From: a virus
IMG/VR virus record: IMGVR_UViG_3300050821_001428
Span: 80,268 to 144,267 of that record
DNA length: 64,000 bases
Direction: 5' to 3' (one strand)
The position numbers and the translations under genes were made by a program. Each line of letters opens with the position of its first letter. Positions within the stretch are counted from its first letter, which is position 1. Shown one piece after another: positions 37,510-64,000 of this stretch. The notes below the pieces were generated by a model. The model was given only the letters and a program-made list of their open reading frames with translations, made no database searches and was not told the DNA's origin.

Positions 37510-38958
37510 ATGCAGTTTTGTGCATATCATCAAATAGAGCATCTAGAAGGGGATTTCAACGCCACCCAACTCAAGCGCAAGAATAGTGCTTGGTGTCGCA
37601 AGGCTCTAGCTGAAAATAAACGCCTAAAGACCCATGGATTAGAGTCCAACTCTAAGGCCAAAGGAAAGGGCGGAAGACCCAATTGGTATACCCTTGAGGA
37701 TTTAGAGAAGATTCAAAAATGGCTTCAAGAGGGTAAATCTTATAGCTGGATCGGAAGGCAATATAACCCCGATAGACAAGCTGCGGTTATATCCAAATTG
37801 GCGCAAGAACAAGGATGGCAAAGCCAAGACGCCCTAAAACTTCAGACAAAGTTTGTTGAACCGGAAAGCAAGGTTTGCACCTGGTGTCATGAAGAAAAAC
37901 CCATTGAAAAGTTTCCTTTAAGATCAGATAGGGAAGATAATAATGGCATTTCTCGCTATGAAGCAAAATGTCATATTTGTCGTAGATTAGTAGTCCCAGA
38001 ACGACAAGCGTATAATCGTAATTATCATCAGATTAATGCAGATGCTATTCGCCAAAATAAACGCGATTATCGTAAACGTCATCCCGAGACTCATAGGAGA
38101 GCGAGTCATGTTAGGCGTGCTACTAAGAATGCCACCCGCGTAGAAGCCTACGATGAACGCCAAATATGGGAATCTTATGATGGATTATGCTATGTGTGTC
38201 AGAAGTCCGTAGATTTCAATAAGCGTGGACACGAAGGCGATTCTTTTACATTAGAACATATTGTTCCTATAAAAAAGAAAGGGCCAACTTCATATAATAA
38301 TTTAGCCGTATCACACAAACGTTGTAATTCTAGTAAGAAACGTTTGATAGTTCCTGATGTATTCGCTGAGGACAATTATTCGGTAAAAGAAATGATAGAT
38401 AAATCCGAAGCATATCGTCTATCTTTAGAAAAACATTATCTACATCGGAAACGATCATTTAGTTATGTATATGGGTTGTATAGGCATGATCAATTGATGG
38501 GATTTGTGGGATTTAGTTCGCCAACTTCGAATCGTATCTCGAAATCAGTATGCCCTGATGATACGCGCCTAGTCATTGAATTAAGTCGTTTATGGATAGA
38601 TCCTCAAGCTGCCGTTAATGCTGGATCGTGGCTAATATCTCGGGCATTAAAAATGCTCCCTCCGTATATTGTAATTTCATATGCAGATTCGGCTATCCAA
38701 GATACTAGACATACTAAACCACGCAATCATAATGGCCTGGTTTACCAGGCAACTAATTTCTATTTTGCTGGTAAAACCAAACCCTCGCATGAATACGTTG
38801 CTAATAATAGTAGATCGGTAACTAAGGATACACCTGGTGCTATCAAGCAAGAAGTATCCTCTAAATATCGCTACTGGACTTTGACCGGTAGCAAAAGAGA
38901 TAAAAAGAATCTTTTCCGATTATGTAATTGGCCTATACTGGACCCGAAAGATTCCTAA
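37510..38958 (+). CDS. HTH/Zn-finger + HNH endonuclease fused to a Mom-like (GNAT-fold) DNA-modification domain
   Basis: HNH part: CTWC/CHIC, CYVC..LEHIVP..GPTSYNNLAVSHKRCN. Mom-like part: KHYLHR..YGLY..GFVGFSSP..IELSRLW..NAGSWLISRALK..ISYAD..HNGLVYQATNF. Confidence 0.8.
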   Translation: MQFCAYHQIEHLEGDFNATQLKRKNSAWCRKALAENKRLKTHGLESNSKAKGKGGRPNWYTLEDLEKIQKWLQEGKSYSWIGRQYNPDRQAAVISKLAQEQGWQSQDALKLQTKFVEPESKVCTWCHEEKPIEKFPLRSDREDNNGISRYEAKCHICRRLVVPERQAYNRNYHQINADAIRQNKRDYRKRHPETHRRASHVRRATKNATRVEAYDERQIWESYDGLCYVCQKSVDFNKRGHEGDSFTLEHIVPIKKKGPTSYNNLAVSHKRCNSSKKRLIVPDVFAEDNYSVKEMIDKSEAYRLSLEKHYLHRKRSFSYVYGLYRHDQLMGFVGFSSPTSNRISKSVCPDDTRLVIELSRLWIDPQAAVNAGSWLISRALKMLPPYIVISYADSAIQDTRHTKPRNHNGLVYQATNFYFAGKTKPSHEYVANNSRSVTKDTPGAIKQEVSSKYRYWTLTGSKRDKKNLFRLCNWPILDPKDS

Positions 38959-40951: not shown

Positions 40952-43900
40952 TTACCTACCGAAAATAGCGGAATCCAATACATAGTCATCCATAGGAGCA
41001 TTGCTCGCAGCCGTGTGATCATTCGCTACGCGAGTGAAACCATTAGGTGCTGAGCTAAACTTGCCGAACATAGACGGAACCTTAGTTAGACCAGCGGTGC
41101 GGTGCTGTGCAATCTTAGCCAGACCAGCAGTCTTAACCTTACTTAATGATTCAATCTGTGCTAATACTACAGTTTCATCAGTATTATCGAGAGTAGCAAT
41201 ACGATTGAACTTTGCATCAACCGGGGATAAACCTAATTCAATTTCTAGTTCTGCTAGCTTGATAGATGAGATACGCACAGAGCCGGTGTGAAGCTTCACG
41301 TCAGGCGTAGGTACTCCACCAAACTCCATCTTATCCTTGGTGGTAGGATCTTGCTGCTTCAGTACGCCATTTCCGTCAGTACCGCTCCAAGTTGTTGTCG
41401 GACCAGAGTTATTGGCGGGAGTAGTCTGATGCTCAAGTAGATTGACGCGCTTATACGAGTCAGTCGCCACCGAATCAGTGGGCTGAACTCCCTGAACCGC
41501 TGAACCTCCCTGGGCAACAGGCTTGTTACCCTGCTGTTCATTCTGTTCTAACGTGTTATCGTCGTAAGAATAACGAGCTTGTGCATATGCATCTTGTGCC
41601 TGCTTGACAGCGGCATAATAAGCATTTGCAGCCTTTACTCCATCTTCGGTTGCTGGGAACGGGTCGCTGGTCACCGGATCAGTAATACCCTTTGCGGTAC
41701 CATCCGAATCGCCAAAGGTCTTAGTTGGACCAGAATCTTCAGTTGTCTTATCGGTATTGAAACCGGAATCATCGCTCTTTGGATCAGCGGTCGTAAGGGT
41801 TTCGGTCTTATCAGGCTCGACACCCTCGACACCCGTACCACCAATACCGGTTACATCAATTTGCTTCTGTGCAGTCGAAGCTGCTTCGTTTGATGCTTCA
41901 TCGAAACCACCAACACCGACAACATCAATGCGCTCCTTAGCGGAGGTGCCGTCAGGCGGGGTAGCTCCATCAGCAATCTTGGTATTACTCATAGATTCTC
42001 CTAAATGATTATGATTGTGATTGCGTTGTGCAGTTGCCATTAGACGTTGTGCAGTCAGCATTGCTGAGGTAATAGGCGTTCTCTGATCATTCAGAATAAC
42101 CTGATTACTTGGTTGATTGGTTACAATAGTATTAGGCTGCAAAACAGGGTTTTCAACCTTGTTAATTCTTGCAGCGGTCTTTTCTGTTACTAATGGAGTC
42201 CAACTCATTCTATTATTTACATTGGCGGTGGGTTGCTGTTTATTAGGCATTTGTCCGATTGGTGCCTGAGTTTGTGGACCAGCAGCAGTTTCTTCTTGAG
42301 TCTTCATCTCGTCACGAATTTGTTGTGCCTTTTGTAGATCGGGGTTGTCAAAATCCTTAGGACTTTGGACAAACCCACACACATCACAAGTTTCACCTTC
42401 CATTTGCGCCCCACAATTATGCACTAAAGCGCCCTCTACAACATATGTATGATCTACATCAACCTCTAGATTGTAAACATATCCATCATATGGTATTTCT
42501 TGAATCGAAGAAATCTTAGAAAGATTATATCCGCCAAATGCCCATTTGTTTTTGCCATACTTGGTTGAATAATCACAATTTGGATTAACTTTATAAGCAT
42601 TTTCTACCTGATACGTTATCTTTTTATTCAATGGGTATGTGGTAGTAATTGAAGGCTTATAACAATTAATACGATTACCATACTCTGCCACTTGTAGAGC
42701 TAATGTTCTTGATGTCTGCTTAAGGTTACCCTTTTTATCATGGCCATCTCCATTTAATACTCCTTCAATAATATATTGAATTTTATTATCAGGTAAGAGC
42801 ATTAATTCAGCCGGTATGATCTTATTATGAGAATGTTTACCAATCCAAGCAGGGAACCACCTAGCCAACACAGTGCTACCTACTACTACCCATATACTAT
42901 TAGGCTTATTAGGAACGGTGTAGAGCGTAGGATGATATCCTAATTCAGTAAATATCCTTATTAGACGATCTTGATATTCTGTTTCCTTACGATGTAAAGC
43001 GAAATTAATCTCTCGTTTATTATTGCTACCCTCGGCTATATACATACCAATAGCCCATAAGAAATCTGGAGTTAATTCAAACTCGGTTGGTCCTAAAGTA
43101 CGAGATCCAGATTTAATACCGATTTTACCTCGATAAATTTGACTTGCTATATGGCGCGAAACACCCGTAAGTTCCCCGATACGTTTCCATCCCAAATGAT
43201 CTACCTCACGCAACATCTTAATTTGAGGCTTGATATCAGAATAATCTACATATTCGTTACCCCTAAATTGCTCCGGTACAGATACAGTTGTGATATCACG
43301 AACAATGCTAGGACCAACATGCACCAAATAATTCTGATTTGTTAAAGACGATGCAGACTGGAAATGTAAATGATGATTTTCTTCAAATGACTGTGATTTG
43401 TCGCAGACGCCGGGGGCGCACTTTTGATGATGATCACCTGTTTGAGCAAGAGTATAAAATGGGTGATCAGGAGTAGCAATAACAGGTTGAGTAAATAAGC
43501 CAGAATCAATTTTGATGGCATTACCCGTAAATTTATTCTCCATCACATTGAGGACGGGATGGAAATGACCATCTCCGGTTAATACCTTGGTACCCATCTT
43601 AATCATCTCAATAGGTTCATACCCATTTTCAGTGCGTACCAATGTACCGGGTGCAAAGCAAATAGGACAGATATGTTCATCTCTCAATGTGTCGATATCG
43701 TCTGGGGCATGTACCTTCATTGACTGTGGAAGCTCGTTTTCGGAAGTATGTACGTGTGACCAACGAGGGTCATTCTGAGTGACTTGATTAGGAATCGCTT
43801 CAGGACCACCATGTAGTTCCTGATCGTAGATACCACCGGGAGGGGTTGGACGTGCAGGAGATGGAGAACCAATCGGTAATCCATTTTCATCTACTTCTTC

Positions 43901-44920
43901 ATTCTGCTTCATGAAGTATGGTAGCTGAACGCCCTGTTCGTCCAAATGAGGAACACCTTGATTATACTGGCCATAACTCGGATCTTCAAACTCCTGATAT
44001 GTCCCGTCAATACCTTGTGTATGTGGGGCAAATTTGTCACGGTCGTCAGGATGTATGATCCCTGGACCATTCGGATCATATTGACCCTCAGCTACAGGAT
44101 TATAATAGTTATTATCCCATCTACCACCATCTCGACCCGAAGCAATAATTTCCTTAGTTAAAGCTGTCTCGTCTGCTGGATTAAAGACACCGGAGATTTC
44201 AAAAAATTGAACACCACCAACATTTTCATAACTCTTCTTTTTGATCTTCTGACCAGAAGCGGTCTTATAATCATGTTCATGACCCTTAAGCTTCACATGT
44301 GAGCAGAATTCAGCAGCAGTATGCGCTTTATTGCCACAATGTGAACATGTAGAGAATTCACAATTACAACCCATAGAGAAACCGTCAATATGACCTAGCT
44401 TTACTGCATTAGCAAACTTAGGATAGCTCTTGGCATCAATCTCTAGCAGTAATTCAATCTCACAAGCAGGTAGATGTGAAGAATCTACTTCTCTAGATGA
44501 CCAATATGGATCAAGGTCGGCCGTTTTAGCATCTAAGACACGGAACTTAGAATCAACAATCATACCTCTAGTCTTCTTTGGATCACCGTTATTGTGATCG
44601 ACAAAGATAGGCTTATTCATAAAGGTAGCAAAGCCATACTTCTGATTACCGTTAGAAGCTTCTAGTGTGAAACCGTCTGTCGAATGGTGCTTTGCTAGAA
44701 TGTCAGGAGATCCAGCTAACTCTACCGTAGGCCAGCCGTCATGATTCTGATTTATGCGCGAACTGATAGAACGGATTCTTACATACAGAAAATCATCGTC
44801 TGTACGGAAGTCGTTATATTCCGACATCTTATTTAGGGAAGCGGTGTAGATGCGATCCTTAGATCCCTTGAGGTCTAAAACGTCGGCAATCTCGGCTGAT
44901 GCATATTTGGTCAGGCTCAT
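40952..44920 (-). CDS. Prohead (capsid maturation) serine protease fused to scaffold, intein-containing
   Basis: NQNHDGW, IFVDHNN (His), GFSMGC (Ser), CSHC..FCSH, FFEISGVFNPAD. Low-complexity scaffold-like C-terminus. Lies upstream of the capsid genes. Confidence 0.88.
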   Translation of the reverse strand: MSLTKYASAEIADVLDLKGSKDRIYTASLNKMSEYNDFRTDDDFLYVRIRSISSRINQNHDGWPTVELAGSPDILAKHHSTDGFTLEASNGNQKYGFATFMNKPIFVDHNNGDPKKTRGMIVDSKFRVLDAKTADLDPYWSSREVDSSHLPACEIELLLEIDAKSYPKFANAVKLGHIDGFSMGCNCEFSTCSHCGNKAHTAAEFCSHVKLKGHEHDYKTASGQKIKKKSYENVGGVQFFEISGVFNPADETALTKEIIASGRDGGRWDNNYYNPVAEGQYDPNGPGIIHPDDRDKFAPHTQGIDGTYQEFEDPSYGQYNQGVPHLDEQGVQLPYFMKQNEEVDENGLPIGSPSPARPTPPGGIYDQELHGGPEAIPNQVTQNDPRWSHVHTSENELPQSMKVHAPDDIDTLRDEHICPICFAPGTLVRTENGYEPIEMIKMGTKVLTGDGHFHPVLNVMENKFTGNAIKIDSGLFTQPVIATPDHPFYTLAQTGDHHQKCAPGVCDKSQSFEENHHLHFQSASSLTNQNYLVHVGPSIVRDITTVSVPEQFRGNEYVDYSDIKPQIKMLREVDHLGWKRIGELTGVSRHIASQIYRGKIGIKSGSRTLGPTEFELTPDFLWAIGMYIAEGSNNKREINFALHRKETEYQDRLIRIFTELGYHPTLYTVPNKPNSIWVVVGSTVLARWFPAWIGKHSHNKIIPAELMLLPDNKIQYIIEGVLNGDGHDKKGNLKQTSRTLALQVAEYGNRINCYKPSITTTYPLNKKITYQVENAYKVNPNCDYSTKYGKNKWAFGGYNLSKISSIQEIPYDGYVYNLEVDVDHTYVVEGALVHNCGAQMEGETCDVCGFVQSPKDFDNPDLQKAQQIRDEMKTQEETAAGPQTQAPIGQMPNKQQPTANVNNRMSWTPLVTEKTAARINKVENPVLQPNTIVTNQPSNQVILNDQRTPITSAMLTAQRLMATAQRNHNHNHLGESMSNTKIADGATPPDGTSAKERIDVVGVGGFDEASNEAASTAQKQIDVTGIGGTGVEGVEPDKTETLTTADPKSDDSGFNTDKTTEDSGPTKTFGDSDGTAKGITDPVTSDPFPATEDGVKAANAYYAAVKQAQDAYAQARYSYDDNTLEQNEQQGNKPVAQGGSAVQGVQPTDSVATDSYKRVNLLEHQTTPANNSGPTTTWSGTDGNGVLKQQDPTTKDKMEFGGVPTPDVKLHTGSVRISSIKLAELEIELGLSPVDAKFNRIATLDNTDETVVLAQIESLSKVKTAGLAKIAQHRTAGLTKVPSMFGKFSSAPNGFTRVANDHTAASNAPMDDYVLDSAIFGR
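42416..43660 (-). mobile_element. Intein with LAGLIDADG homing endonuclease (residues 421-835, 415 aa)
   Basis: Starts CFAPGTLV. Block B ATPDHPF. LAGLIDADG blocks IGMYIAEGS and EGVLNGDG. Ends VYNLEVDVDHTYVVEGALVHN, followed by Cys(+1). Confidence 0.93.
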
Positions 44921-53726: not shown

Positions 53727-54311
53727 ATGAACTATGGAGCCGTGATCTTAGATCCTCAATATGATCTCCTTGATGGAGGTAGTATTAATGCGTTAAATGC
53801 TGGTACGGCATTACAAAATATCGTAAAGTTAACTGCTGATGCTGATCTAGTAGTAGTTACTAGGGATCTACATCCCGATAATCACTTTTCTTTTAAAGAC
53901 GAGCCTTTATTCCAAGACGGATCATGGCCCGTCCATTGTGTAGAAGGCACCAAGGGTGCTAAGGTATTTCCTGCAATTCGTAAGCGGGCCGATTATATTA
54001 TATCCAAAGGTATGAGTCCTGTACCGCCAGATGCTTATTCGGCATTCTCAGCTAAGAAACTACGCCCTTTGGAAGACCTGATTGATATACTACGTAGACA
54101 TCCGGTAGATCGTCTTATAATAGCAGGATTTCTATTAGAGATAGGTGTCAAGTACACGGCTTTTGATGCTAATGCAATCGGTCATTGGACAGAAGTCATA
54201 GTACCGCTAGAAGCATGTGGTACTCTGTTAGATGCAGCCGGGATAGCAGAGGCGATAACACCTATGCGAAAGGCCGGAATCAAAATAGTCGATCATTTTA
54301 TCAACGAATAA
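53727..54311 (+). CDS. pncA: Nicotinamidase/isochorismatase-family protein (catalytic Cys appears replaced)
   Basis: DPQYD, TRDLHP..HFSF, WPVHCV.GT.GA, SKG...YSAF. Nucleophile position reads EIGV instead of DYCV. Confidence 0.8.
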   Translation: MNYGAVILDPQYDLLDGGSINALNAGTALQNIVKLTADADLVVVTRDLHPDNHFSFKDEPLFQDGSWPVHCVEGTKGAKVFPAIRKRADYIISKGMSPVPPDAYSAFSAKKLRPLEDLIDILRRHPVDRLIIAGFLLEIGVKYTAFDANAIGHWTEVIVPLEACGTLLDAAGIAEAITPMRKAGIKIVDHFINE

Positions 54312-57781: not shown

Positions 57782-60700
57782 ATGATAGTAAATCCAAAAT
57801 TTAGCATCAGTTTATCAGAGATACATGATGAAATTTGTCATCGCGGTTGGGAGATCATTAAATGCAAGTATGATAAGAAGACAGATCGTTATACCGCTCA
57901 TGCAAAGAACGAGTTAGATCAAGAGGTTGAAGCTTTTGGCAAGAATCCGAAGCAGGCTCTTGCAAATCTTCTAAATAATGTAGCTTATGAACATGCGAAG
58001 GGGATTCAAAGACTCGCACGTTGGAAGCAAACGTTCGAAGGGCAATTACTACAAATTGCTGAGGCATACTCTAAGGCTCCTGCCTACGAGAAGAAGGCTG
58101 CTGCTGCGTTTCTAGAACTTTCCGCCGAATGCGAATCTCGCGCTAAGGTTATACGTCAGCATATTCAGGTGACTACGGTCAATAATCCCGAACCATATCC
58201 GACTTCCGACAAGATGTATGACGATGTGCGTAAACGTCGCAAACTTGAGGTCAGCGCAGTAGCAGCGGATAATCATCCTATCTGGACAAGAGAACAAGTA
58301 GTTGACTATCGTATTTGCATTGACGTTCTAGGATTCACGGCGGCTAACGCTAATTGGGGTTGGGAAGGTACAAATTATGCGTTTGGTGCTTTTGCCGCAT
58401 TGTTGCCAGAGCTAGCCCAGGAAGCACTCTTTAGCGAGCTTGTAGGACAGACGGCATATGCAACTTATTATCGTGCCTATGGCCCAGCCAAGATTTGCCT
58501 TTTGACTAAGTTTATCGAAAAAGCGATGAGGGAAGAAAATCCTCATCGTGGTTTCCGTGGTATCCATCCCTCCCAGATGTTATTGCCTAGCGAGACTCCA
58601 GAGGCGAAGCAAAAAACTGCTGGTATTGCCAAGAAAACTAAGCCAAACGCCGATGGTTCGATGCCCTTTGACATTAATGATGGCTGGTCATCAACTCTAG
58701 AGAATATTCCAACTGTTCACTATCCGACTGAATTTAGCGACTTCTTTAATCTACGCGGCGCAAGCGATGTTTTAGATGGTCTACATACTGATTGGGCCGA
58801 AACTATTCACGATAATTCTGATAGTGCGCATATACGTCAAGAATGGCGTACATATAAGTTAGATGACCCTGAAGGAGCCTTACGTATTAAGCACGCTGTG
58901 GCGAATGCCATCAAGGGTGCATTATTACTAGAAGATAATACGCTAGGTCATGGGGCCGTTCAATATCAAGCTCTTCTTCACAAGGTGTCTGATGATCCAG
59001 AAGAGCTTATCAAAACGCTTAATGGGGCACGTTCTGAATGGAACGTTGAGCGTTTTGGTGAACATACTTCAGAAGAGCATCGCCCTTGGGCTATTGCTGA
59101 TGCTAAATCTGGCCAAATTCCCATGTTTGCATTAGCAAACTTGATTTATGAAAAGAATCCAGATATGAAGTTGATGGATGCTCATAAAGAAGCACAACGC
59201 ACTATCCATCAGATGTTAAGTCGATTCCATGAACAGGCCAAGGCTGAAGAAAATACAGATAATATACCAAAAGATGAGGCTGGCTGGCAGACCGAATCCA
59301 AGGCTATTGAAAAGCTCATGAAGTGGTTAGATATAACCACCGGTTCGCACGGTAAGTTTGATCATTGGATGGTCCCTGGACAACATGTGTCGGCTATCGA
59401 TCCTATTAAGCCGCATAAATATGACCCTGGCTACGATCAGTACGATAATCATAAAGTATTTAACCTTCAACGCTTCCCGGCGATACATGGCAAGCATATC
59501 CAAACAATTTCTAAGTTAATCAAAAGCCTTGATCAAATCGTAGAAGAGGCGTTAATTGACGTTCATAATCATGACGGCAAGGGGCACCATTTCCGTGCAT
59601 TTATAATGCACTTGGTTGATATTGATCCTAAGACCGTAGGTGTTATGTGGCTATTACTCGCTCCGTATACGTCGCAGCTTTCAATGATTGATGAAGAAAT
59701 GGCTGGTGCCCTTGGTCATCATGCGGAAGGTCGCGCTGCAAGGAATTATTTTCTTCATGAAAGAGAATTAATTGCTCACCGTGACGGTATGGGTCTAGCT
59801 CATATACCTTTGGGGCATTTTAATCTTGCGCTTAAAGGAGGCCACGTCGCAGGTGGGTCTAAGCAATCATCCGAAAACGACAAACACGATCATCAGGACT
59901 TAAGTAGCTTGCGTATTGAGAATCCTACGCCCGCCTGGAAGGTTAAACTAAAATCCCCCGGTGATCTTTTATATAACTTCTCTTTAACTCCCGATGTTGT
60001 CAAGCCTATTCAAGAGCATTGGAATAACACGGTAGCTACACAATTTGCGCCAGATGAGACTCCTACCAAGAGCCATCGTCCTGGCTTTATGATGATCGCT
60101 ACCAATCCTATTGAACGCAAGATGGCATCTAAGATGCAGGAATATCGCAACCTTGGTATGAGTGTGCAGGACGTATGGAATAAGATAGATGAACCAAGTG
60201 ATATAATTGACAAATGGACAAAAAATACAAACGATCTGACACAGAAGAATTTATCAAACAGTTGGAAAACAGCGGCAGAGATTTGGGAATCCTCACCAAT
60301 CACCCCGAATGGCCACACTATCGCTCACATAGAAAATGCTCCATCAATCAATTCGACCCAGGCCCCCTATCTGATGACGAGTGGATCAACGAATTTATCG
60401 AATGGTTACGTGAGCGCAGTGCATCCAACCTGGCTGAATCAATGGATTCAGCATAACGGACCATATTTAACCCATTATACCCCCAACCCTAATACCGTTC
60501 AGGATATATATCGTAATGGACTCATCCCAGCTTCGCAACTAGATCAAGATCAAAAATTTTATAGTGGAAAGTTAACTTCTAGACCTGATCATGTATATCT
60601 TCAGGGATCTATTCCGGCCCCAAACTTTTCAAATAATTATGTTGCTGTGGATTTACGTAAATTAGATCCGTCTAATCTCAATCCAGATGAGGATTCCTTA

Positions 60701-61888
60701 TTACATACCAATCACCCATTTGATGATATACCATATGGTAATGGACGTACCCCTGTAAATTTCCCTTACCAAAGTTATGGTCATTGGGCACATCAATATA
60801 ATCTAGCGCATCCAAAACATACAAGTTGGAGTTTAAATTCAATAGGTACTGTTGCACATCAAGGTATGATTACTCCAGATCAATTAACTCCAATGGCGCA
60901 AGTATATACTGATTTGCAACAAAATTGGCCACATGTATTATCCAATTATGGTCCCACCCATCGAGTACCTTACAATTCACGGTGGGATGATCTTGGCACT
61001 AAAGAATCTGCGCAACCGGGCTGGACAGACTTTTACCACGCTACACCACGCGCTAATAGAGAATCAATTCAAAATCTTGGTTTGATGGGCGAAAATGGCT
61101 CATCGCCATGGGGTGACACGACACGAAGTTGGGGGCAGCCTTATGGTAACTATTTCTTTGATAATCCAAATGATGCTGTGACATATGCAAATTCAGCGTA
61201 TAATCGGTTCAAGCGCGATGGGGCTGATGACTATGAGCGTCAGTATACTCAGGCCGAGCCGCCTCAGGGTTGGGGTAATCTAAATGATGATGAATATGAT
61301 CAATGGCATGAAGATAATCCTCCTACACAGAGAACAGAAGATCCTGAAGGCTGGGATGTTTGGAAGGTAAATACCCGAGGATTGAATATCAATCGTGACC
61401 CCGAAGCAAACCTAGTATCTCCTCGCAGTCCTCAGGATATTCATCCCGATATGAATAATAGCGATGCTCCGTGGGATGAGCAATTGGAAGATGCAATTAA
61501 TATGTATGGCGGTAGTCCTAATCGTTATTATACACAAGATCATATAGAACCGGAACGTGTACAGCTACATCAGCATATTCCAATGTGGCAAAACCATGAC
61601 GATGACGAATACGAATACGAATACGAATATGAGACACATCACCCGATGCATTGGGATGAGGCGCTGCTACATAGGCCAAAGTTCCCTGCACATAGCTCTA
61701 TTAAGACAGCCGATAAACTACACGATTTCTTAATGAATCCAAAGAGTCGTCCTGATACCAATTTAAATCCACATTGGAATCCCGACACACATAAGTACGA
61801 GAATGAGCTATATCAATCATCACCGCAATCGGTACCCCAACAGTTACCACAACCTATACAACCAGTACCGGGAGGGGCTTGGAGCTAA
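57782..61888 (+). CDS. Large multidomain protein: degenerate zincin-like and HhH-like domains plus two ADP-ribosyltransferase-fold domains
   Basis: ART-like 1: THYT..QDIYRNGL..RPDHVYL..GMITPDQL. ART-like 2: FYHAT..ESIQNLGL..GNYFFDNPNDA..WKVN..DHIEPERV. Confidence 0.7.
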   Translation: MIVNPKFSISLSEIHDEICHRGWEIIKCKYDKKTDRYTAHAKNELDQEVEAFGKNPKQALANLLNNVAYEHAKGIQRLARWKQTFEGQLLQIAEAYSKAPAYEKKAAAAFLELSAECESRAKVIRQHIQVTTVNNPEPYPTSDKMYDDVRKRRKLEVSAVAADNHPIWTREQVVDYRICIDVLGFTAANANWGWEGTNYAFGAFAALLPELAQEALFSELVGQTAYATYYRAYGPAKICLLTKFIEKAMREENPHRGFRGIHPSQMLLPSETPEAKQKTAGIAKKTKPNADGSMPFDINDGWSSTLENIPTVHYPTEFSDFFNLRGASDVLDGLHTDWAETIHDNSDSAHIRQEWRTYKLDDPEGALRIKHAVANAIKGALLLEDNTLGHGAVQYQALLHKVSDDPEELIKTLNGARSEWNVERFGEHTSEEHRPWAIADAKSGQIPMFALANLIYEKNPDMKLMDAHKEAQRTIHQMLSRFHEQAKAEENTDNIPKDEAGWQTESKAIEKLMKWLDITTGSHGKFDHWMVPGQHVSAIDPIKPHKYDPGYDQYDNHKVFNLQRFPAIHGKHIQTISKLIKSLDQIVEEALIDVHNHDGKGHHFRAFIMHLVDIDPKTVGVMWLLLAPYTSQLSMIDEEMAGALGHHAEGRAARNYFLHERELIAHRDGMGLAHIPLGHFNLALKGGHVAGGSKQSSENDKHDHQDLSSLRIENPTPAWKVKLKSPGDLLYNFSLTPDVVKPIQEHWNNTVATQFAPDETPTKSHRPGFMMIATNPIERKMASKMQEYRNLGMSVQDVWNKIDEPSDIIDKWTKNTNDLTQKNLSNSWKTAAEIWESSPITPNGHTIAHIENAPSINSTQAPYLMTSGSTNLSNGYVSAVHPTWLNQWIQHNGPYLTHYTPNPNTVQDIYRNGLIPASQLDQDQKFYSGKLTSRPDHVYLQGSIPAPNFSNNYVAVDLRKLDPSNLNPDEDSLLHTNHPFDDIPYGNGRTPVNFPYQSYGHWAHQYNLAHPKHTSWSLNSIGTVAHQGMITPDQLTPMAQVYTDLQQNWPHVLSNYGPTHRVPYNSRWDDLGTKESAQPGWTDFYHATPRANRESIQNLGLMGENGSSPWGDTTRSWGQPYGNYFFDNPNDAVTYANSAYNRFKRDGADDYERQYTQAEPPQGWGNLNDDEYDQWHEDNPPTQRTEDPEGWDVWKVNTRGLNINRDPEANLVSPRSPQDIHPDMNNSDAPWDEQLEDAINMYGGSPNRYYTQDHIEPERVQLHQHIPMWQNHDDDEYEYEYEYETHHPMHWDEALLHRPKFPAHSSIKTADKLHDFLMNPKSRPDTNLNPHWNPDTHKYENELYQSSPQSVPQQLPQPIQPVPGGAWS

Positions 61889-62049
61889 TGCATTATCATT
61901 GGAAGACAGGACAACCTTGTAATTGTGGTTTTCATAAGCCAGTAGCAAACGAAGCACAATGGATTACGCCAGAATATACACCAAGAGGTGATGACAGCCG
62001 TGAAATTGTAGGACAGCGGCGGGATAATACAGATGAATCAGATAACTAG
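61888..62049 (+). CDS. 53-aa protein with H/C cluster (not in ORF track)
   Basis: MHYHWKTGQPCNCGFH...DESDN*. TAATG coupling upstream; the next ATG lies 1 nt after its stop. Confidence 0.55.
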   Translation: MHYHWKTGQPCNCGFHKPVANEAQWITPEYTPRGDDSREIVGQRRDNTDESDN

Positions 62050-63850
62050 TATGTCGGCTGATGAACTGCATGTGTCTCTTAAGGTACCACGTTATGCAGC
62101 TAAGGAGATATTTAGATGGGCCAGAGAACAGCAATGGCCCGAAGGCACCCAGCTTGAAGATTTTAATGAGTATCACTGCACGCTGCTCTACTCGCCAAAT
62201 GGATATCAATATTGGTCAGATGCCTGGTTTATTCCAAAGCTTGAAGTCTTAGAAGCACAGGTAGTAGGATTTGATAACTTTGGTGACGGCGAGGGGGAAC
62301 AGGTAGCTTATGTATTACGTCTACATGGTGAGGATCTTCAAGCCGAGGCGGAGAAGCTTCAATCGGAAGCTAGTCACGTCGGGGTCATCGACAATTTTCT
62401 AGGCGCTTATAAGCCACATATTACCATAGGTTACGGGCCAGTTAAGGTCAATGTTACACCGCCTGATATGTTATTAGATTTAGGTCCGGTAGAAGTCTCG
62501 CCACCGCGTCTAGAACTAACAGATACACCATCATTAGAAGGTATCGCCAAGGATTTACACCAAGAATATCAAGACGGTACATCGCCAACTGAAATTGTCA
62601 TGTATGCAGCAAATCGCCTCAATGTCGCAGGGTTCCCTGACGACGATATCACTATACAGGCAGCCCTAGAGTCTTGGCAGATCCTTTACCCTGAAGATGT
62701 TATTTTACAGCATACGGCGGAATGGGCTTGGAATTCTGGCTTTGAACATTTAATAGATCAATATTCACCTCATGGACTTTCATGTCTTTATGACGAAACC
62801 CCAAATATGATTGATATCTCACATATAGAGGTAGATCCTGCTCGTCGTAATACGGGAATTGGGTCTAAATTCATGGAAGCCGCCCATCAATATGCCCAGA
62901 GTGTTGGTAAGCAACTGAATATCTCAAGGGTGGACAATGCCCCATTCTTTAATAAATTTCCATTTTTACAGCAACAAGACGCTAAGACATTCGTTACCGC
63001 ATCGATATGGGATGAGACTAACAATTGGCGACCAAGCTCTCTTATAGCCGCACAGCATAGTAGTCAAAATATAATGCCTAATGATCATTCGTATTATCAT
63101 GCGGCTTTAAACCAATTTACACCAAATCCGAATAGTGGTGTCCATAAATCATTTATTAATACAGAAACACCTAATCAGCTTTATATCAAGCCAGAACAAC
63201 CAGATGACTATCATCGCGATTCTCCGATTAAAGAGCGTGGAGCATTTATATTAGGTAACGCTATGGGCATGAATGTGCCACAAGCAGTGGTTAGACCTGT
63301 GGTAATACCACAACATCAGTTGTATGCAACAAGTCGTGAGGCATTTCAAAAGAGAAACCCGCGACATCATCCGGATAAACCCATTAGAGCGTATGCGTCG
63401 GTACATCATGGCGTTCCTAATAGCCAGACATTGGAAGATTATCTATATGACCAGGGTATTTATAGTCACGAACTGCAATCACAGTGGATGGCTACGCAAC
63501 CCGAGGAACGTCGTAAGACGTTATTATTTGACCAAGTTATTGGTAATCAAGACAGACATAGTGGTAATCTATTAATAGATAATAATAATCAGTGGCATCA
63601 GATCGATCATGGAGGGGCATTCAGAAATGTGACCGATGATGGAGCAGATCATTTCTTTTTTAATAAAGATTTTTATGATCAACCACTAACGAATGAAGAA
63701 CGTCAGCGAGTACAAGCCGCGCGTCAGGCTATTGACAATCCCAAACATTCTGCTATATTTAGTCATCCCGACCTACATCCAAAGGTCTTAAATCAGCGCA
63801 TTAATACGCTGCTCAATACAGGGAAATTTATCACACCACCCGTATCATAA
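62033..63850 (+). CDS. Three-enzyme fusion: 2H phosphoesterase (Acb1-like) + GNAT acetyltransferase + HipA/PI3K-like kinase (start probably 62051)
   Basis: 2H: YHCTLLY and PHITIGY (two HxT). GNAT: ISHIEVDPARRNTGIGSKFM. Kinase: LYIKPE..ERGAF..VP..DQVIGNQDRHSGNLL..IDHG. Confidence 0.82.
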   Translation: MNQITSMSADELHVSLKVPRYAAKEIFRWAREQQWPEGTQLEDFNEYHCTLLYSPNGYQYWSDAWFIPKLEVLEAQVVGFDNFGDGEGEQVAYVLRLHGEDLQAEAEKLQSEASHVGVIDNFLGAYKPHITIGYGPVKVNVTPPDMLLDLGPVEVSPPRLELTDTPSLEGIAKDLHQEYQDGTSPTEIVMYAANRLNVAGFPDDDITIQAALESWQILYPEDVILQHTAEWAWNSGFEHLIDQYSPHGLSCLYDETPNMIDISHIEVDPARRNTGIGSKFMEAAHQYAQSVGKQLNISRVDNAPFFNKFPFLQQQDAKTFVTASIWDETNNWRPSSLIAAQHSSQNIMPNDHSYYHAALNQFTPNPNSGVHKSFINTETPNQLYIKPEQPDDYHRDSPIKERGAFILGNAMGMNVPQAVVRPVVIPQHQLYATSREAFQKRNPRHHPDKPIRAYASVHHGVPNSQTLEDYLYDQGIYSHELQSQWMATQPEERRKTLLFDQVIGNQDRHSGNLLIDNNNQWHQIDHGGAFRNVTDDGADHFFFNKDFYDQPLTNEERQRVQAARQAIDNPKHSAIFSHPDLHPKVLNQRINTLLNTGKFITPPVS

Positions 63851-63878: not shown

Positions 63879-64000
63879 ATGAAACATACCCATATTCATA
63901 ATAACAATCATGAGGGGATCTTGTGGGTCGATGAGAATGGCGACCTTCAAGCCGGTGACAGGTATGCAAAGATGCATATGGACACGTTAAGCAGGTCTGG
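63879..64000 (+). CDS. Partial hypothetical protein (runs off the right edge)
   Basis: ATG at 63879, open to the end of the window (MKHTHIHNNNHEGILWVDENG...). Confidence 0.35.
   Translation, partial: MKHTHIHNNNHEGILWVDENGDLQAGDRYAKMHMDTLSRS

Follow-up and report, generated by a model that had tools for sequence, protein, structure and literature searches.

The 64,000-nucleotide (nt) window analysed here, positions 80,268 to 144,267 of the virus record IMGVR_UViG_3300050821_001428, encodes close to its end a polyvalent phage effector, in which a 2H phosphoesterase domain, a minimal GNAT acetyltransferase and an atypical kinase are joined in one protein of 605 amino acids (aa). This is the safest statement about the gene, which we refer to as the effector. 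The window is the last part of a linear IMG/VR record of 144,267 bp with a completeness estimate of 90%, and the host record is an uncultured myovirus by its tail sheath, baseplate wedge, fibre and head-protease genes. An earlier reading of the letters without database searches (the sequence-only reading) had placed three enzyme domains with intact catalytic motifs in a single polypeptide here, and both the open reading frame (ORF) and all of the motifs that it quoted are present. The domains and motifs of the effector are arranged as follows, where A1 to A8 denote our alignments and PI3/4K stands for phosphatidylinositol 3- and 4-kinases.

62033..63850, plus strand: effector ORF, 605 aa, ATG start, stop codon within the coordinates, single and intact
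62033..62512, plus strand: 2H phosphoesterase domain of the Acb1/LigT clade, aa 1-160 (Pfam Acb1, Foldseek, VIA)
62174..62182, plus strand: first HxT motif, H48-C-T50, in YHCTLLYS (aa 47-54); invariant in A1, A2 and A3, aligned with H44/T46 of T4 Acb1
62417..62425, plus strand: second HxT motif, H129-I-T131, in KPHITIGYG (aa 127-135); invariant or nearly so in A1-A3, aligned with H113/T115 of T4 Acb1
62525..62707, plus strand: three-helix connector, aa 165-225 (SLEGIAKDLH ... QAALESWQILYPED), without family assignment
62723..62992, plus strand: minimal GNAT acetyltransferase, aa 231-320 (Pfam Acetyltransf_CG, _1, _7 and _10)
62843..62872, plus strand: GNAT motif A, the acetyl-CoA pyrophosphate loop, RRNTGIGSKF (aa 271-280); R272, G275 and G277 invariant in A7
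63068..63847, plus strand: atypical PI3/4K-like kinase, aa 346-605 (PHROG 3162, Pfam PI3_PI4_kinase and HipA_2)
63188..63235, plus strand: predicted ATP-binding Lys386 in LYIKPE (aa 383-388) and alpha-C Glu401 in IKERGAF (aa 399-405), from alignment only
63542..63622, plus strand: catalytic loop GNQDRHSGN (aa 504-512; D507, H509, N512) and metal-binding IDHGGAF (aa 524-530; D525), from A4

Every module of the effector is maintained, since an orthologue of 600 aa (P0002), encoded on an independent contig from another sample, retains each of them (2H domain 74% identical, connector 64%, GNAT 68%, kinase 47%) and is about 60% identical overall across 99% of the effector's length. The junctions are kept in more distant proteins as well, that between the GNAT and the kinase in P0008 and P0009 and that from the 2H domain through the connector to the GNAT in P0003. 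AlphaFold models reached a mean predicted local distance difference test score (pLDDT) of 88 for the 2H part and of 82 for aa 165-605.

Sequence models place the 2H domain, marginally, nearer to Acb1. The Pfam Acb1 model (PF23474) matches aa 12-141 with 31.8 bits in the whole protein and 34.8 bits in the domain alone, above its cut-off of 27, and it reaches only to position 117-118 of the 144 in the model. The LigT_PEase model (PF02834) does not match the domain, and 2_5_RNA_ligase2 (PF13563) gives 14.1-17.8 bits, below its cut-off of 27; as a calibration, Escherichia coli ThpR has no match to the Acb1 model and scores 79 bits with LigT_PEase and 53 bits with 2_5_RNA_ligase2. When a profile built from the effector 2H domain and 24 stand-alone homologues (A2) was compared with the PDB, the Acb1 of Burkholderia phage BCSR5 was the best match (E 2.7e-5), with LigT-type cyclic phosphodiesterases (CPDases) at about 5e-3 and the FBB1 Acb1 at 0.07. 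The 2H model likewise found Acb1 structures as its top three Foldseek matches (7t27 at 7.6e-7, 9q2g at 9e-7), and the Deinococcus radiodurans CPDase followed at 1e-6.

The motif context points in the same direction. In A3, the stretches HxTxxYS and Y.PHITxxY are common to the effector and T4 Acb1 but not to ThpR, which has HxTLAF and HITLLR, and the residue that follows the second HxT is Tyr in the effector and T4 Acb1 and Arg in ThpR. In Acb1, the anti-CBASS nuclease that cleaves 3'3'-cGAMP, cA3 and related signals, the determinants described by Hobbs et al. (2022, PMC9117128) are the tetrad H44, T46, H113 and T115, the base-stacking residues Y12, W74 and F107, E141, which contacts adenine, and W147 in the lid. 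The tetrad is kept in the effector, and W74 aligns with the invariant F83, F107 with about F122 and Y12 with H13; at 19% identity these pairings depend on the alignment, and LigT is aromatic at some of the positions too. The resemblance to the Acb1 proteins of T4 (gp57B) and Erwinia phage FBB1 spans the 2H fold, the HxT/HxT tetrad, the best Pfam match, the extended motifs and, putatively, the F83/F122 aromatics. However, identity is only 17-21%, Tyr12 aligns with His13, the C-terminal Trp lid is missing, and the effector family has a signature of its own, W..Q.WPEGT.L.D..YH.T..YS. Moreover, Acb1 is a stand-alone protein of about 150 aa, whereas the effector 2H domain is fused to three more modules. 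With the LigT/ThpR enzymes (E. coli ThpR, D. radiodurans CPDase) the domain has the fold in common (Z 14.5-13, root-mean-square deviation (rmsd) 3.1-3.5; hhalign probability 93), but it differs from them in the absent LigT_PEase match, in the Tyr for the ThpR Arg and in its lack of a ligase context. On these comparisons the effector 2H is best described as a distinct clade between Acb1 and LigT, the substrate of which is not readable from sequence.

The connector, a fourth conserved module in addition to the three enzyme domains of the sequence-only reading, is predicted to form helices at residues 4-16, 21-34 and 41-54 of the model of aa 165-605 (pLDDT 85-91). It is conserved in P0002-P0004 and P0006, relocated in P0005 and matched alone in P0127 and P0134, and sequence comparison marks it as a conserved mobile unit in many relatives. 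In the GNAT that follows, four Pfam GNAT families match aa 248-309 with E values from 6e-6 to 3e-2, and orthologues clear the Acetyltransf_1 and Acetyltransf_CG cut-offs (P0003 with 23.6 bits, P0009 with 26.8 and 32.6, P0008 with 30.7). Nearly all matches of the GNAT profile in the PDB are GNATs, over motif A and the stretch FF.KF.F (best E 1.9e-4), and motif A was aligned to that of 8osp, RibT and 1u6m. The modelled core has the order alpha-beta-beta-alpha-beta, and the N-terminal half of a canonical GNAT is missing or replaced. By sequence and model the domain resembles the minimal PF14542 type, not a full-size toxin GNAT: it has the short core, motif A and FF.KF.F, and PF14542 is the best Pfam GNAT family for the effector and its orthologues, although the effector copy lies under the cut-off and is embedded in a multi-domain protein.

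In the kinase, the K-P and E-R-A-A-F columns around the predicted Lys/Glu pair are conserved in A4 and align with FKP and AEIAAF of Fam20. D507 is invariant, the other residues of the catalytic loop are conserved in most rows, and D525-H-G is conserved. The loop and this DxG together form the region matched by PF00454, PF20613, Fam20B and the phosphatidylinositol 4-kinases (PI4K), and the orthologues P0002 (31.1 bits), P0004 (39.9) and P0010 (40.7) clear the PI3_PI4_kinase cut-off. The kinase model found PI4KIIalpha with Foldseek (6e-7), while VIA gave PI4KIIbeta at Z 13.1, Helicobacter pylori CtkA at Z 12.2 (rmsd 3.7) and Fam20 at Z 10, and then PRPK, PIKKs and PI3Ks. In a profile search of the PDB the xylosylkinase Fam20B was nearest (1.4e-5), together with Fam20A and PI4K2B (1.4e-4). 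The GN.DRH..N loop, the DxG, the Lys/Glu pair and the fold are thus held in common with type II PI4Ks, CtkA, Fam20 and the HipA family; in contrast, identity is 11-18%, and no lipid-binding or HipA N-terminal elements were detected. The substrate class of the kinase is not inferable, because its solved relatives phosphorylate lipids, proteins or sugars. In the BFVD, the same fold occurs in tailed-phage proteins of 500-1340 aa annotated as PI3K/PI4K, MuF head morphogenesis, HK97 portal, NUDIX or ADP-ribosyltransferase (ART). NCBIfam gave only a far sub-threshold SCO1664 match.

Variants of the effector occupy the same slot in five related phage loci, where they range from 484 to 1673 aa, with domains added, lost or fused. 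They comprise 2H and kinase (484 aa), 2H, GNAT and kinase (600-605 aa), a second kinase-like module followed by 2H and kinase (758 aa), 2H, an additional region, GNAT and kinase (1084 aa), and the second kinase-like module, 2H, further regions, GNAT and kinase (1673 aa). Some effectors bear two kinase-type heads, since in P0004 (L005:8001-10277) and P0008 (L003:3036-8057) this second module, with the stretch ..NVLW...IDHGSSFE.., makes up the N-terminal 250 aa or so before the 2H domain.

The wider family search returned 171 representatives, and our statements on the family rest on the 150 of them that were listed. In the majority of these, the 2H match is embedded in a protein of 400-3184 aa; stand-alone forms, of 150-240 aa, tend to have lower scores. 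A Pfam tally over 58 multi-domain members (E <= 1e-4) matched 14 families, including Acb1 (31 members), PI3_PI4_kinase and 2_5_RNA_ligase2 (11 each), cREC (8), NUDIX (4) and NUDIX_4 (3), LigT_PEase (3), KptA (1) and PcfJ (1). No RNA ligase was among the 14 families, and searches with PF09414 and RtcB found no ligase in the roughly 90%-complete phage record.

In IMG/VR, the 2H alignment A8 found only three distant loci, and a scan with the single effector protein gave no match. A scan of 185,579 species genomes with A8 found no relative and thus gave no hint of a prophage or a host. Distant relatives of 1390 aa (L012:7839-12011, 2H with cREC) and 1918 aa (L011:7443-13199) are encoded in two IMG/VR phages of 160-170 kb, each immediately behind genes for tail-collar or collagen-repeat fibres. 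A gene for a BCS1-like AAA ATPase in L012 lies about 270 nt downstream of the polyvalent protein, past a 93-aa ORF. Our literature searches returned nothing relevant on an Acb1-kinase fusion or on the BCSR5 structure.

We read the effector as a polyvalent counter-defence or host-takeover protein in the sense of Iyer, Burroughs, Anand, de Souza and Aravind (2017, PMC5512222), a reading that we hold tentatively, at slightly under an even chance. These authors described polyvalent-type 2H domains without ligase association and proposed that they degrade defence nucleotides, with an RNase role as one option. As in their proteins, unrelated catalytic heads stand in one phage protein, 2H, GNAT and kinase are all heads that they list, architectures vary between related elements, small cassette ORFs adjoin, and the 2H domain is not linked to a ligase. 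The cassette-like shuffling of the slot matches their description, and shuffled architectures are typical of arms-race effectors; the fibre-gene neighbours of the two distant 2H relatives also count in favour of the reading. On the other hand, the effector kinase is PI4K-II/Fam20/CtkA-like, in contrast to their Ser/Thr/Tyr kinases without a C-lobe or zeta-toxin kinases, and the effector and its 58 relatives lack a MuF or portal fusion, the effector lying beside nucleotide-metabolism genes instead. The sequence-only reading had likewise proposed a combined anti-defence and host-takeover role; the polyvalent class and the occurrence of the kinase fold in phage proteins fused to MuF, portal, ART or NUDIX domains accord with it, but the Acb1 link on which it leaned is marginal.

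In the counter-defence or host-takeover reading, the 2H head would cut a cyclic phosphodiester in a metal-independent reaction through its His-x-Thr pair. Its target would most plausibly be a host immune nucleotide signal, a cyclic oligonucleotide or related messenger, as for Acb1, although we rate this assignment as somewhat short of even. Signal degradation is favoured because of the sequence models, the motif context, the lack of a ligase and the published prediction for polyvalent 2H domains. The minimal GNAT would bind acetyl-CoA and acetylate a host protein or small molecule, and the PI4K-II/Fam20/CtkA-like kinase would phosphorylate a host target, which could be a protein, a sugar or a lipid.

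Several observations count against this reading. The substrates of all three heads are putative. The Acb1 assignment is marginal, at 32-35 bits as compared to 202.7 bits for T4 Acb1 with the same Pfam model, and the stand-alone 2H homologues divide between the Acb1 and LigT_PEase models. Profile-profile comparison of A2 by hhalign slightly prefers ThpR (probability 93.2, E 2.9e-7, 138 columns) to T4 Acb1 (probability 86, E 5e-6, 83 columns). In VIA, the 2H model gave marginally higher Z scores for the CPDases (D. radiodurans CPDase 14.5, LigT 14.4-13.0) than for Acb1 (13.4-12.4, with 7t26 and 7t27 at 13.4 and 12.7), and we count 14.5 vs 13.4 as a tie, since rows close to within 1 Z were treated as such. 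The lid residue W147 of Acb1 has no counterpart, there being no Trp between aa 136 and 214 of the effector; a conserved GP..VS.PR motif occupies the lid position in the effector family. E154 aligns with the adenine contact E141, but the column holds E, K, A or S in close relatives. Hence the label Acb1-like given in the sequence-only reading holds only marginally: the Pfam match is above cut-off and the tetrad is kept, but the score is far below that of T4 Acb1, the lid is absent, hhalign leans slightly to ThpR and the structure searches tie. The grouping with LigT that it had named as the contrary outcome is neither borne out nor refuted by these comparisons. The other two heads score just under their Pfam cut-offs in the effector itself, the GNAT with 26.8 vs 30 bits for PF14542 and 19.9 vs 20.7 bits, and the kinase, on aa 486-544, with 24.1 vs 27 bits for HipA_2 (E 2.5e-5) and 23.2 vs 27.1 bits for PI3_PI4_kinase (E 7e-5). 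The cREC, NUDIX and KptA company of the relatives is also a signature of RNA-end or ADP-ribose cyclic phosphate (ADPr>P) processing (PMC9503650). Finally, no MuF or portal family was found in the effector or the 58 relatives, and the effector's own neighbours are nucleotide-metabolism genes; injection with the virion is thus putative, and the protein may equally be made after entry.

The surroundings of the effector are conserved. The slot has the order nicotinamidase-like gene, dCTP deaminase, ThyX, DUF6899, giant ORF, effector and small ORF, and the five related loci share it (dCTP deaminase not in all), with a giant ORF of 890-1465 aa and a downstream ORF of 113-210 aa. The neighbouring features in the window are listed below.

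53727..54311, plus strand: nicotinamidase/pyrazinamidase-like gene, isochorismatase family (76.6 bits vs a cut-off of 174)
57782..61888, plus strand: giant 1368-aa ORF of the same operon, directly upstream of the small coupled ORF, with no Pfam family
61888..62049, plus strand: small coupled ORF (MHYH..TGQPCNC..) between the giant ORF and the effector
63879..64000, plus strand: first part of the downstream small ORF, which runs off the contig end (BLASTP 2e-10 to the 113-aa ORF of L002)

The ATG of the small ORF overlaps the TAA of the giant ORF (TAATG), and its end overlaps the effector start by 17 nt, so that the giant ORF, the small ORF and the effector are translationally coupled. A promoter and terminator scan showed no enrichment over shuffled sequence and is silent on the timing of expression. 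In L002, L005 and L007 the position of the nicotinamidase-like gene is conserved, and an orthologue of the giant ORF lies immediately upstream of the effector; in L006 this ORF is end-truncated (at least 1367 aa). One giant-ORF orthologue contains a PcfJ domain. At its C-terminus the giant ORF has tandem modules, HYTPNP...GL...HVYL and FYHATPR...GL, for which an Atlas feature search gave weak PARP and Tox-ART-HYD1 leads (0.89-0.90, about 100 common features). When the giant ORF was compared with the additional regions of P0008 and P0009, as a test of fusion between neighbour and effector, no similarity was seen.

The motif M-H-Y..TG.PCNC.F.KP of the small coupled ORF is invariant in L004, L005 and L006, where it forms a separate gene, and is embedded within P0005 and P0009; it may be a Cys/His metal-binding module. 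Downstream, the 113-aa ORF that follows the effector orthologue in L002 (L002:11805-12146) ends in ...DDNWQDYQGE..ERRHNDVSFSNDTMWLN, and its C-terminal motif NDTMWLN is found fused to the C-termini of P0003, P0005 and P0006, where it may serve as a targeting or interaction peptide. Elsewhere in the window, a 482-aa ORF at 37510-38958 (plus strand) matches PHROGs of endonuclease VII/HNH type at aa 106-312 and Mom-like DNA modification at aa 287-470. A 1321-aa ORF at 40952-44920 (minus strand) is head-maturation-protease-like and matches PHROGs anaerobic ribonucleotide reductase at aa 416-490, which would fit an inserted element.

A possible, though somewhat less likely, explanation is that the effector heals RNA ends or clears products of nicotinamide adenine dinucleotide (NAD) and ADP-ribose (ADPr) metabolism. 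Its 2H domain, LigT/ThpR-like or Trl1 CPDase-like, would open RNA 2',3'-cyclic phosphates or the ADP-ribose 1''-2'' cyclic phosphate made by KptA or ARTs, and the kinase would add phosphorylation, so that tRNAs or mRNAs cut by anticodon nucleases are repaired or ADPr products are disposed of. The cREC, NUDIX and Tpt1/KptA domains are parts of the ADPr>P and RNA-repair network (PMC9503650), and processing of RNA cyclic phosphates or ADPr>P is favoured because of the ThpR profile match, the missing lid, the company of cREC, NUDIX and KptA in the relatives, the nicotinamidase-like gene in the operon region and the weak ART-like lead in the giant ORF; the first place of the CPDases in VIA adds to this. 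However, neither the phage record nor the 58 architectures hold a ligase, the LigT-type Pfam models are unmatched or below cut-off, Tyr stands where ThpR has Arg, and the pathway has no place for the GNAT. In addition, no PI3/4K-fold enzyme is known to act as a polynucleotide 5'-kinase, which counts against repair of this kind.

A more speculative, and very improbable, proposal is that the pairing of a lid-less 2H domain with a kinase, seen in 11 of the 58 relatives, inactivates a messenger in two steps. The 2H domain would open the cyclic phosphodiester before the kinase acts; the kinase may then phosphorylate the linear nucleotide, an ADP-ribose-derived product or a sugar hydroxyl and so block re-cyclisation or sensing, while the GNAT may cap a third target.

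It is very improbable that the effector is a toxin or exclusion protein, in which a HipA-like kinase and the GNAT would poison translation in the manner of HipA/HipT and TacT/AtaT, to shut down the host or exclude other phages, with the 2H domain as a Usb1-type RNase. The HipA_2 match, a 'putative HipA family kinase' cluster among the Atlas structural neighbours and the RNase option of Iyer et al. speak for it. But the HipA_2 match is below cut-off, HipT reached only E 0.22 in the profile search, and the nearest folds are those of type II PI4K, CtkA and Fam20. Furthermore, a HipA N-terminal domain was not found, nor was a gene for a HipB-like antitoxin next to the effector on the same strand, the GNAT is a truncated PF14542-like form and not a full TacT-type enzyme, and PADLOC produced only 13-15-bit fragments, with no convincing family match. 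The HipA-type translation toxin of the sequence-only reading is therefore not upheld.

An assembly chimera, or a decaying pseudogene in which motifs survived by chance, is refuted by P0002 and by synteny on independent contigs and retains a negligible probability: the gene does lie close to the end of its contig, which is linear and metagenomic (150 nt away), and neither the effector protein (tblastn) nor the surrounding 14 kb (megablast) has a match in 50,697 cultured-phage records, but the same architecture, with its junctions kept and its modules conserved and confidently folded, lies on a contig that runs 10 kb past the orthologue, so the contig end after the effector is an assembly break and the fusion is no chimera, contrary to the caveat of the sequence-only reading.

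The class of polyvalent proteins that bear 2H, GNAT and kinase heads is already known, and Acb1 has been characterised. What is new is the particular architecture of the effector, its conserved but shuffled slot in an uncultured myovirus lineage, and the recurrent association of a PI4K-II/Fam20-like kinase with a 2H clade that lacks the lid and has no studied member. Few phage enzymes are known to destroy immune second messengers, Acb1 and Apyc1 among them, and these are mostly small and stand-alone. The locus shows an uncharacterised 2H clade between Acb1 and the RNA-repair CPDases that is found almost always within large, fast-shuffled phage effectors, in the company of atypical kinases, cREC, NUDIX and a mini-GNAT. 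The effector domains are compact, and the models predict them to be well folded; the kinase and the GNAT may bring new activities that modify the host. Should the 2H domain process cyclic phosphates of RNA or ADPr, the locus would represent the NAD-ADPr network in a form that works without a ligase; if the two-step proposal is true, signals would be destroyed by a new enzymatic route and the PI3/4K-fold kinases would gain a new class of substrate. If defence signals are what the 2H domain cleaves, counter-defence of the Acb1 type would reach into a large group of uncultured phages, and the effector would be a natural case of several counter-defence activities on one polypeptide.

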